The notes beneath the pieces were generated by a model. That model searched no databases, was not told the DNA's origin, and was given only the letters and a program-made list of their open reading frames with translations. This document shows, piece after piece, positions 43,821 through 45,288 of a stretch of DNA of 64,000 nt. Source of the stretch: an uncultured Candidatus Saccharibacteria bacterium (GTDB lineage: Bacteria > Patescibacteriota > Minisyncoccia > Phycocordibacterales > UBA2100). Both the position numbers and the translations under genes were made by a program. Numbering within the stretch: position 1 is the first letter of the stretch; each line of letters opens with the position of its first letter. The stretch lies in assembly GCA_964471165.1 (NCBI GenBank), contig CAYYEX010000005.1:42593-106592 (forward strand). Direction: 5' to 3'.

Positions 43821-44243
43821 TTACTTAAAGTTTAGAGGATTATAGCCGTTTTTCAGGAAATTTCTAGTGGAGAGGAACAATGGTTCTGGGTACTCGCCTA
43901 TTCCAAACCATCCTACATTTGAGCACTTTTCAGGTTCGCCAATTCGCGGTTCTCCAGTCTCCCACTCTGCTCGCAGCGCGATTGTTACATAATGCTTCCC
44001 ACTATCAAAAATATCATTGGTCACTCCAAGAAATTGGATATTTTTAACCGTCACCCCAGTTTCTTCCAATGCTTCACGTGCACCACATTCCTCCCAAGTC
44101 TCCCCAAACTCAAGATGACCGCCGGGTACTGACCAGGACCCCTCTCCATGTGTACCCTTGCGCAAAGTAAACAGGAGTTTTCCGTCACTGCGATGAATAT
44201 AGATTCCCACACCGACACCTGGCCGGGTCACTGCGTCACTCAT
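43821..44243 (-). CDS. NUDIX hydrolase (MutT-like), inside the atp operon
   Basis: Nudix box [25 protein letters not shown]-terminal EPEKCS motif is shared with the NUDIX at 44845..45288. 5-nt gap to atpD and 4-nt overlap with the Ham1 gene. Confidence 0.85.
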
Positions 44244-44839
44244 ACAAACTCTTTTAGCAGTATCTCTCTGGCCTGTTTCAAGGCTCGGCCGCGATGACTG
44301 ACCGTATCGATGAGCTCGTCATCGAGTTCGCCAAACGCCTTCCCTAAATCATTGGAAATAAACAACTGATCAAAACCGAATCCTTTTTCACCATGCGGTT
44401 CAGTGGCAAGGACACCCTCGGTAACCCCATATCCAAAACGGACCTTGTCGCTACGCGGGTCGTATATCGCAATCACGTCCCGGTATCTGCATGTGCGCTT
44501 ATCCGCGGGCACATCTTTCATCATCTCTAGAAGCTGAACGAGTCTTTCCGCGCGATTCCCCGTGAATGAATACGCAGTCTGAACACCCATAGCTTCCGGA
44601 AACGCATCGATCTCAAGACCAGAGTCGTCGGCAACAGTAATCATCTGCGAATGCTTTCCATATACGAACGCCTTGATAAGCGCATTCGCTTCGTACGTAG
44701 TACCGGGCTCAGCAACGTTGAATCCGTCAGGCAGCGTCAAGTCATTGAGTGTCCGTATTTGAAATGGAATGTCTTTCAGTCCCGCAATAAGCTGCGGGAT
44801 TTTTCCCTTATTTGCAGTCGCTAAAAGGAGCTCCCTCAT
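44240..44839 (-). CDS. rdgB: Non-canonical purine NTP pyrophosphatase (RdgB/Ham1/ITPase family)
   Basis: ATANKGKIPQL, ADDSGLEIDAF, LEMMKDVP and TVSHRGRAL motifs align along the whole length with E. coli RdgB. Confidence 0.85.
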   Translation of the reverse strand: MRELLLATANKGKIPQLIAGLKDIPFQIRTLNDLTLPDGFNVAEPGTTYEANALIKAFVYGKHSQMITVADDSGLEIDAFPEAMGVQTAYSFTGNRAERLVQLLEMMKDVPADKRTCRYRDVIAIYDPRSDKVRFGYGVTEGVLATEPHGEKGFGFDQLFISNDLGKAFGELDDELIDTVSHRGRALKQAREILLKEFV

Positions 44840-44844
44840 ACAAA

Positions 44845-45288
44845 TTATTTATTGTCGAACCCGTAGTTACTGAACGGCTCACCGTCCGCGATGCATTTGA
44901 GCGCCTGCTGAACGTACGGAATTGTATTCGATGGCAAGTCTGTGGCGGCGTACCACCAGAGGTCCGAGCACTTTTCTGGTTCCATGTTTTTAAGTTCCCC
45001 CGTCCAGGAATCCGCGGTAATGTACACGTCGAAATACGTTCTGTCTGGGTACTGTCGCTGCATCACATGAACAATCTCTAAGTTGCTCTCGGAAATGTCG
45101 AGATTCGTCTCTTCCATCACTTCACGAATAAGCGCCTGTTCAGCGGTTTCTCCGCGCTCAATGTGCCCCGAAACGAGTCCATAGTTTCCATCTTCGTGCC
45201 CGGTATTCTTGCGCTGTGAAAGCAATACCTGGTCTTCGTATCTTAGGACCAGAAACACTGCACCAAAAAACAGAAACTTATCAGACAT
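44845..45288 (-). CDS. NUDIX hydrolase, inside the atp operon
   Basis: Nudix box SGHIERGETAEQALIREVMEETNL; MEPEKCSDLWWY motif is paralogous to [12 protein letters not shown] in the NUDIX at 43821..44243. 3-nt gap to atpG. Confidence 0.8.
   Translation of the reverse strand: MSDKFLFFGAVFLVLRYEDQVLLSQRKNTGHEDGNYGLVSGHIERGETAEQALIREVMEETNLDISESNLEIVHVMQRQYPDRTYFDVYITADSWTGELKNMEPEKCSDLWWYAATDLPSNTIPYVQQALKCIADGEPFSNYGFDNK

Follow-up and report, generated by a model that had tools for sequence, protein, structure and literature searches.

Organization of the atp locus

We analyzed a 64,000-nt stretch of DNA (the window) from an uncultured bacterium labeled Candidatus Saccharibacteria (assembly GCA_964471165.1, contig CAYYEX010000005.1, positions 42,593 to 106,592), in which the genes of the F1Fo ATP synthase are interrupted by three genes of nucleotide-hydrolase families. 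Listing of open reading frames (ORFs) and Pfam scans identified a complete F-type cluster on the minus strand, with matches for all eight subunits: a, c, b, delta, alpha, gamma, beta, and epsilon lie in one cluster. An earlier reading of the letters alone (the original prediction) had given the minus-strand order as atpB-E-F-H-A-G, then NUDIX-rdgB-NUDIX, then atpD-C, and the ORFs and Pfam matches bear this out (Table 1). We refer to the inserted genes as NudA, Ham1, and NudB, and to the three together as the cassette. The tight spacing that had been noted was also seen when the junctions were read directly: NudA follows atpG after 3 nt, Ham1 follows NudA after 5 nt, the start of NudB lies over the stop of Ham1 in a 4-nt ATGA overlap, and atpD follows NudB after 5 nt. 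A scan of the coding strand from atpG to atpD gave no terminator-like site, and scans of the window for tRNAs and for Rfam or other structured RNAs gave no match. A 9-bp hairpin on the opposite strand near the Ham1 start (44801-44778) was dropped, as it is not kept in relatives.

Misassembly had been named as something that would undo the observation. The window comes from a metagenome contig, and one short contig with the same cassette (L004) changes identity abruptly inside atpD, both of which could point to an assembly or binning artefact. The exact Ham1 protein is, however, found on a 262-kb contig, and three additional short contigs (L002-L004) from other assemblies or runs encode it too. 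Misassembly is excluded because the neighbours are the same on all of them, with identical junctions; the arrangement also recurs across many independently assembled species. We regard an artefact as having a negligible chance of being the explanation.

Table 1 Features of the atp cluster in the window and contents of the corresponding junctions in relatives (loci L005 onwards). Window coordinates are used throughout for the window, where all genes of the atp cluster lie on the minus strand.
Feature	Locus	Junction	Position	Strand	Basis or remark
atpB-E-F-H-A-G, upstream part of F1Fo cluster	window		45292-49957	-	Pfam; atpE = ATP-synt_C
Terminator-like hairpin of the gene upstream of atpB	window		50008-49995		scan; just before candidate operon promoter
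Candidate operon promoter, extended -10 TGATAGAAT	window		49975-49967	-	sequence, inferred; ends 9 nt before atpB ATG
atpB	window		49957-49082	-	Pfam
atpE	window		48982-48755	-	Pfam ATP-synt_C
atpF	window		48739-48287	-	Pfam
atpH (delta), 129 aa	window		48280-47891	-	Pfam
atpA	window		47864-46293	-	Pfam
atpG, 304 aa counted from ATG	window		46206-45292	-	Pfam
Exchangeable cassette segment	window	atpG/atpD	43869-45291	-	blastn breakpoints and allele-class matrices
NudA, NUDIX, 147 aa	window	atpG/atpD	45288-44845	-	PF00293, 65.6 bits
Ham1/RdgB-type, 199 aa	window	atpG/atpD	44839-44240	-	PF01725, 136.8 bits
NudB, NUDIX, 140 aa	window	atpG/atpD	44243-43821	-	PF00293, 82 bits
Conserved promoter-like element for atpD-atpC, TAGAAA-16-TATAAT	window	atpG/atpD	43866-43839	-	consensus scan and conservation
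atpD (beta), 458 aa	window		43815-42439	-	Pfam
atpC (epsilon), 82 aa, N-terminal beta-sandwich domain only	window		42433-42185	-	Pfam
NudA-Ham1-NudB	L005, L006, L010	atpG/atpD			
NudA-Ham1-NudB and extra small ORF	L008, L009, L012	atpG/atpD			
YjjX-type inosine/xanthosine triphosphatase and NudB	L007	atpG/atpD			TIGR00258, 120.3 bits vs cut-off 117.1
Ham1-NudB	L030, L032	atpG/atpD			
Small ORF and Ham1	L013, L020, L026, L033	atpG/atpD			
NudB alone or with other small ORFs	L016, L018, L019, L021, L023, L025, L059, L063	atpG/atpD			
CYTH protein	L049	atpG/atpD			more distant relative, atpG 53% identical
Third NUDIX clade	L017, L021, L028, L031	atpA/atpG			
YfbR-like HD 5'-deoxynucleotidase-like protein	L013, L016	atpA/atpG			
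MazF/PemK-like toxin	L017	atpA/atpG	3806-4210		
MazF/PemK-like toxin	L025	atpG/atpD	8918-9370		
Small coiled-coil ORFs	several relatives	atpA/atpG			
Small coiled-coil ORFs	relatives		L014 7619-7999; L022 7600-7998; L020 7638-7967; L036 7654-7992		
Small coiled-coil ORFs	relatives		L038 7602-7997; L015 8974-9249; L041 9242-9523; L044 7991-8266		further examples, list not exhaustive
Small multi-pass membrane proteins	relatives	same slots	L012 9380-9778; L032 8908-9237; L025 9923-10324; L059 9377-9778; L055 8956-9264		

Families of the inserted enzymes

As had been claimed, the inserted proteins all belong to nucleotide house-cleaning pyrophosphatase families, and their motifs are intact. Both NUDIX proteins score above the PF00293 gathering cut-off of 21.1, and Ham1 scores above the cut-off of 22.5 for PF01725. 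The Nudix box of NudB is fully canonical when compared to GX5EX7REUXEEXGU; that of NudA, GHIERGETAEQALIREVMEETNL, has all of the Glu residues and the Arg, with the last Gly replaced by Asn. The two had been described as paralogs with a common C-terminal motif, and the motif is indeed present in both (in NudA it reads MEPEKCSDLWWY), at an overall identity of 30%. Their best solved relatives are the Rickettsia MutT-type protein 4kyx, Arabidopsis NUDX1 (AtNUDX1), and human NUDT15, with PDB matches of 4.9e-30 to 1.5e-26 for NudB and 2.3e-15 to 2.6e-6 for NudA. The alignments extend through the C-terminal EPEKC..W.W, which places both proteins by similarity in the AtNUDX1/NUDT15-like subgroup, and NudB also shares the GYNP motif of these relatives. 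Unlike them, the window has two deeply diverged copies in one operon, one of them with the Asn substitution in its Nudix box. The DNA encoding the EPEKCS motif is identical at 16 of 17 nt between 43921-43937 and 44966-44982 despite the low protein identity; chance or codon bias could account for this, as could a small tract of gene conversion.

Ham1 belongs to the same family as E. coli RdgB (YggV), Ham1, and ITPA. It aligns end to end with E. coli RdgB (1.6e-26), with the TxNxGK, DDSGL, FGxD, and SHRG motifs in register, and residues K13, D72, G74, H182, and R183 are invariant in 13 cassette Ham1 proteins. It scores below the NCBIfam equivalog cut-offs (143 vs 234 for NF011397 and 112 vs 145.35 for TIGR00042), and is therefore a divergent family member. 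As a member of this family, it is predicted to be an RdgB-type pyrophosphatase of non-canonical purine nucleoside triphosphates (NTPs), namely (d)ITP and XTP. All three proteins look like functional house-cleaning NTP pyrophosphatases, with substrates assigned by family membership.

We know of no atp-cluster gene context for the Ham1/RdgB family, and E. coli rdgB has an unrelated gene neighbourhood. A metagenome scan with an alignment of the 13 cassette Ham1 proteins returned 80 loci, mostly distant Ham1 genes of unrelated bacteria. Only four of these lie beside atp genes, all of them Kaiserbacteria-like, including one with the full trio (L082). Ham1 relatives elsewhere, 40-49% identical, sit in unrelated contexts, beside tRNA synthetases, ThyA/DHFR, or another NUDIX gene. 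An atp-cluster location therefore characterizes the clade and not the enzyme family. Clustering of NUDIX and Ham1 genes also exists outside atp clusters: in L084 (Ga0209541_10000221, 651-6603), a metagenome contig with no relation to the window, a NUDIX gene immediately precedes Ham1, further NUDIX-like ORFs lie upstream, and there are no atp genes nearby.

Variable junctions across the clade

A scan for atpG with one genome per species yielded 71 species-level loci, nearly all from Kaiserbacteria, Paceibacteria, or Patescibacteria metagenome-assembled genomes; some Third Party Annotation records label the lineage 'Saccharibacteria'. The window proteins were mapped onto these relatives, the gaps were listed, and the ORFs in the gaps were clustered and scanned against Pfam and NCBIfam. 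Two junctions, atpG/atpD and atpA/atpG, are variable slots across the whole clade; we call them seams. By hand count, about 25 of the roughly 40 loci with atpG at least 57% identical carry at least one nucleotide hydrolase in a seam, and about 15 of the 40 carry none. In deeper relatives and outgroups, atpG and atpD are mostly 11-90 nt apart. The comparison with related genomes that the original prediction had proposed therefore agrees with its statement that such an interruption is unusual, finds the interruption recurring in about 25 of about 40 species-level loci, and lends strong support to its alternative of a permissive landing site.

Hidden Markov models (HMMs) trained on the NUDIX and Ham1 proteins of the cassettes were run against every ORF in 44 loci. 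All 25 NUDIX genes and all 12 Ham1 genes lie inside seams (38 kb) and none in the flanks (304 kb), these counts being phylogenetically non-independent; the single match scored as outside was a seam gene of L031 with an over-extended ORF start. In a neighbor-joining (NJ) tree of AtpA, AtpG, and AtpD without support values, the cassette-bearing genomes fall in one crown clade, with NudB throughout.

An NJ tree of all slot NUDIX proteins showed a one-to-one match between clade and position. NudA-type proteins are encoded only directly after atpG, NudB-type proteins only directly before atpD, and a third NUDIX clade only between atpA and atpG. Because they form separate position-specific clades, NudA and NudB are old paralogs and not the product of a recent tandem duplication. 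A paralog phylogeny had been suggested for dating the duplication; in this tree, both clades are old by the measure of the species compared. In seven of the nine compared loci with both genes, across very divergent alleles, Ham1 and NudB share the ATGA overlap, which fits translational coupling of the pair. A repeated junction motif, TTTGTATGAG, was rejected as a feature: only its Ham1-NudB copy is conserved, and the NudA-Ham1 copy is specific to the window genome.

A promoter-like element upstream of atpD

According to the original prediction, neither terminator nor promoter signals lie between these genes. The first part stands for the coding strand; the second does not. A sigma-70-like element, TAGAAA-16-TATAAT (10/12 matches), lies in the final codons of NudB, 23 nt upstream of the atpD start. 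On its own this site means little, because promoter-like sites in the 9-kb region are not in excess (5 found vs 6.3 expected from shuffles). It is significant because it is conserved across relatives. Comparing the 75 nt upstream of atpD across loci, we found that a DNA motif, actagaaatttcNNgaaaaacggcTATAATcctc, recurs in relatives of the window. In L005-L009, L021, L032, and L063 it is coding sequence (T-R-N-F-x-K-N-G-Y-N-P). Elsewhere it is a non-coding remnant: it follows the NudB stop in L012, follows an unrelated 123-aa ORF in L022 (27 of 32 bases identical to the window), and lies within the 52-nt atpG-atpD spacer in L037. Some loci with adjacent atpG and atpD have canonical promoters at the same place, such as TTGATA-17-TATACT in L031, L034, and L038, TTGAAA-17-TAAAAT in L014, and TTGTCA-16-TAAAAT in L028.

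With a threshold of at least 9/12 matches within 80 nt upstream of the start codon, promoter matches precede atpD in 60% of loci, atpA in 37%, atpE in 19%, and atpF, atpH, atpG, and atpC in 0-10%. Among the 19 operon-internal genes of the window, atpD is the only one with such a match. In a codon alignment of NudB, conserved residues keep the same codon more often in the tail (codons 121-137), where codon identity is 0.87, than elsewhere in the gene (0.54; Mann-Whitney p = 0.0009); synonymous sites are conserved in the tail. We conclude from these features that, in this clade, atpDC is very probably transcribed from a promoter of its own, with the tail of NudB doubling as that promoter. Strict co-transcription of the trio with atpD, as first proposed, is not needed, and the trio is better described as the tail of an atpB-G unit, because a promoter-like element precedes atpD.

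Across L005-L059, promoter-like matches are commoner before the genes for high-copy subunits (atpD, atpA, and atpE) than before those for single-copy ones. Internal promoter-like sites may tune subunit stoichiometry at the level of transcription.

Discordance between cassette genes and their flanks

In blastn comparisons of the window with L005, L006, and L008, similarity breaks off at the stop codon of atpG (45292/45293) and is regained at 43868, with the opening bases of the promoter-like element. L005 and L006, the closest relatives, are 97-98% identical to the window in atpD, 96-98% in atpA, and 93-94% in atpG, and their non-atp neighbours are 75-95% identical. Their cassettes are far more divergent, with NudA 39-41% and NudB 41-46% identical and, in L006, Ham1 45% identical; overall, cassette NUDIX alleles are at 37-46% identity against 97-98% for atpD. 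In L008, L010, and L082, which are more distant, atpG is 86-90% identical, yet their NudA is 79-81% identical to that of the window. Ham1 is 73% identical in L008 and L010 and 44% in L082. A nearby hydrolase gene is only 49% identical in L008 and is absent from the L010 fragment.

L004 (ENA ERZ27247828 k141_844424, positions 1-2068) is 100% identical to the window over 1,368 nt, spanning part of NudA, Ham1, NudB, and the first ~30 nt of atpD, and then drops to ~60-85% nucleotide identity in atpD (83% at the amino acid level). Either natural recombination has set this cassette in another atpD background, or the contig was assembled as a chimera.

Together these patterns indicate in-place replacement of cassette genes by divergent homologs, with atpG on one side and the promoter-like element and atpD on the other as probable homology arms. 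The discordance between alleles and flanks is observed directly; from it we infer recombination as the mechanism. Nothing marks the cassette as a mobile element. A Pfam scan found no integrase or transposase among its three genes, inverted repeats are absent, and direct repeats are limited to short matches in coding sequence or at junctions. The composition is not atypical: GC content is 0.47-0.50 for the trio vs 0.514 for the window, and the lowest GC content at third codon positions is that of NudB (0.42). Compositional evidence for recent transfer was judged weak and set aside, the GC of the trio being within the range of the genome. A phage origin was likewise rejected after three scans of viral contigs, by a method that finds only fairly close relatives, returned no relatives of the cassette genes.

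A probable exchangeable cassette in an operon seam

We consider it probable (about 60%) that this Kaiserbacteria-like bacterium belonging to the Candidate Phyla Radiation (CPR) carries, in an operon seam, an intact and exchangeable sanitation cassette that rides on the atpB-G transcript, with atpDC expressed from a promoter of its own. Transcription and enzymology are throughout read from sequence in this account. Transcription from the atpB promoter would run through atpBEFHAG into NudA-Ham1-NudB. Because the junctions are so tight (3 nt, 5 nt, and ATGA) and lack a terminator, the cassette would be read through and expressed constitutively with the ATP synthase, at about the level of the low-copy gamma subunit. 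The atpD-atpC pair would be transcribed from its own promoter, which its conservation places here in the last NudB codons, and the junction would tolerate insertions because expression of beta and epsilon would be independent of what lies upstream. Being very conserved, atpG and atpD would serve as homology arms, between which cassette genes are swapped for divergent homologs from other Kaiserbacteria. The enrichment of the slot in nucleotide hydrolases points to selection that keeps them there, and the likely reason is that dependence on salvage calls for steady, unregulated house-cleaning: CPR bacteria are reported to lack nucleotide synthesis (10.64898/2026.07.13.738296), so that salvaged pools would need constant cleaning. 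No direct biochemical link to the ATP synthase is required for this seam reading.

Several points weigh against it. Both promoters are predicted, as consensus matches supported by conservation, and the nucleotide conservation of the NudB tail could stem partly from a role as recombination arm rather than promoter. The recombinant-like contig L004 could be an assembly chimera, which would need a second strain sharing the cassette end. NUDIX enzymes of the AtNUDX1/NUDT15 type take broad and varied substrates. The loci behind the census share ancestry, and the strong thematic enrichment could equally reflect a direct functional link to the ATPase. Finally, the slots of relatives also hold MazF-like toxins, small coiled-coil and membrane ORFs, lipid-synthesis genes, and an RNase H-like gene, and general permissiveness is therefore part of the picture.

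A direct functional coupling would have the sanitizers kept with the F1 genes and acting on the nucleotide pool that F1Fo uses or produces, for example by removing ITP, XTP, or oxidized purine NTPs that F1 would mis-use or be inhibited by, or by clearing NTPs made from salvaged IDP or GDP; membership in the operon would set the amount of enzyme relative to the ATPase. Its attraction lies in the recruitment of several families to the same two junctions (three NUDIX clades, Ham1, the YjjX type, HD, and, in a distant relative, CYTH), in the confinement of all NUDIX and Ham1 genes detected in the 44 loci to seams, and in L007, where a YjjX-type ITP/XTPase replaces NudA and Ham1 in what looks like a functional replacement. 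The epsilon subunit of the clade, without a C-terminal inhibitory domain, would also fit an ATPase-running enzyme exposed to any NTPs. We nevertheless think coupling unlikely: the ATP synthase complex does not need seam enzymes in cis, because about 15 of 40 clusters do without them, and outside the clade, comparably diverged Ham1 relatives have unrelated gene neighbourhoods. To our knowledge there is no physical or biochemical link between these families and F1Fo, and a literature search for one found none. Thematic enrichment is the only argument for anything more than neutrality, or for a direct link to the ATP synthase. Pure neutrality is itself doubtful. A landing site that tolerates any insertion, with the hydrolase theme an accident of one inherited ancestral insertion, would agree with the unrelated genes in the slots, with the tolerance that an internal atpD promoter explains, and with the single crown clade in which the NJ tree puts most cassette-bearing genomes. 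A single insertion cannot, however, explain unrelated families with similar substrates (NUDIX, ITPase-like, and HD), and such variety (three NUDIX clades, two ITPase types, HD, and also CYTH in L049) is hard to reconcile with one accident. Neutrality also leaves unexplained the in-place swaps to 37-46%-identical alleles with intact catalytic motifs and the Ham1-NudB ATGA overlap that persists across allele classes.

Turnover of alleles might instead reflect diversifying selection on enzymes that destroy phage-modified nucleotides, making the slot an anti-phage or conflict island with MazF-like toxins as fellow passengers. Close relatives carry shuffled allele classes, MazF-like genes are found in these slots in L017 and L025, and the NUDIX proteins weakly match the PADLOC candidate PDC-S07 (1.3e-13 for NudA and 3.3e-10 for NudB). 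That match is at the level of the NUDIX domain only; the Ham1, ITP/XTPase, HD, and CYTH proteins have no PADLOC match, the scans of viral contigs, which find fairly close relatives, returned none, and the closest solved relatives are housekeeping sanitizers, all of which make such an island distinctly improbable. We also give little credence to the broader proposal that the atpG/atpD seam is a dedicated recombining cassette site whose hydrolases are under selection for a function connected with the ATPase or with nucleotide-pool conflict, with swapping as diversifying selection and not passive exchange. Such a role could be to keep non-canonical NTPs from an uninhibited, epsilon-truncated F1Fo ATPase, or to destroy phage-modified nucleotides.

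Relation to known systems

The exchangeable sanitation cassette that we favor combines elements of known kinds: the enzymes, split atp clusters, and core-flanked recombination hot spots. The eight structural genes B-E-F-H-A-G-D-C have the same order in the window as in the canonical E. coli atp (unc) operon, atpIBEFHAGDC. In contrast to that operon, the window has no atpI, carries three foreign genes between gamma and beta, and has a predicted internal promoter before atpD, and so is not a single-promoter, uninterrupted atp operon of the E. coli type. It also differs in its epsilon, cut to the N-terminal domain, and in its short delta.

In cyanobacteria and chloroplasts, atp clusters are split, with the beta and epsilon genes forming a separate transcription unit. 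The break point before beta is the same here, as is the (in the window, predicted) beta-epsilon unit with its own promoter. Unlike in those split clusters, the two units of the window still lie next to each other without an intervening terminator, and accessory genes are accommodated in the gap. Bacterial chromosomes also have integration or recombination hot spots between conserved core genes. The window resembles them in having variable content between highly conserved flanks and alleles discordant with those flanks. It differs in that the slot lies inside an essential operon, lacks integrase, transposase, and flanking repeats, and is restricted largely to nucleotide hydrolases.

A full-text literature search found no description of the combination seen here, a clade-wide, thematically restricted, exchangeable cassette in the F1 part of an atp cluster, one of whose genes contains the predicted promoter for the genes downstream and leaves it behind as a remnant when lost; papers naming 'ATP synthase operon' together with 'nudix' or 'Patescibacteria' treat them separately. 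The finding reveals no new enzyme and no new mechanism. Its significance is that, across an entire clade of ultra-small bacteria, an essential and normally invariant operon has an accessory slot that is stable but whose content can be exchanged, and that a concrete reason for this tolerance can be proposed: a downstream promoter that lies partly inside coding sequence and appears to be kept as a remnant after that gene's loss. The pattern points to nucleotide-pool hygiene being kept constitutively expressed in salvage-dependent organisms. It offers a natural setting in which to study how recombination between conserved flanks replaces genes, and it is a practical caution for those who annotate CPR genomes or predict function from their operons.

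Other features of the window and its relatives

The epsilon subunit of the window (42185-42433), at 82 aa, has no C-terminal helical inhibitory domain, and the delta subunit (47891-48280), at 129 aa, matches only the C-terminal part of the OSCP model. Throughout the clade (atpG at least 45% identical; loci L005-L075), epsilon has 81-90 aa, with one exception of 135 aa, and delta has 114-145 aa; in outgroups, epsilon has 139-142 aa.

Small, charged coiled-coil proteins of ~90-130 aa, weakly interrelated, are encoded between atpA and atpG or between atpG and atpD in many relatives. A Pfam scan of the small slot ORFs in relatives found no significant family; their products could be accessory subunits of the ATP synthase that are specific to a lineage, or simply unrelated passengers. 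The MazF/PemK-like toxin genes of L017 and L025 adjoin NUDIX genes; no antitoxin was recognized. L029 has a 3.5-kb insert (8951-12353) with genes for a 629-aa protein, a CarS-like protein, and a CDP-alcohol phosphatidyltransferase; in L038, atpG is partly duplicated, together with a 95-aa ORF (9259-10341); and the Peribacteria-labelled outgroup L066 has an RNase H-like (RVT_3) gene between two unknown ORFs (8940-10571).

Downstream of atpC in the window, two minus-strand genes (38713-40767 and 40813-42129) encode large proteins with N-terminal hydrophobic segments and long Ser/Thr/Gly/Gln/Pro-rich regions. They look fast-evolving and are probably surface-exposed, because they are 33-57% identical in relatives where other neighbours are 75-95% identical.

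The geometry of the candidate operon promoter TGATAGAAT, with the -10 element 6-10 nt before the ATG, agrees with other intergenic promoter-like sites in the window. At many of these, the -10 hexamer ends 6-10 nt before the ATG, for example upstream of the genes at 24494-25084, 27970-28881, 52497-53750, 55204-55578, and 49082-49957, which suggests that leaderless or near-leaderless mRNAs may be common in this organism.

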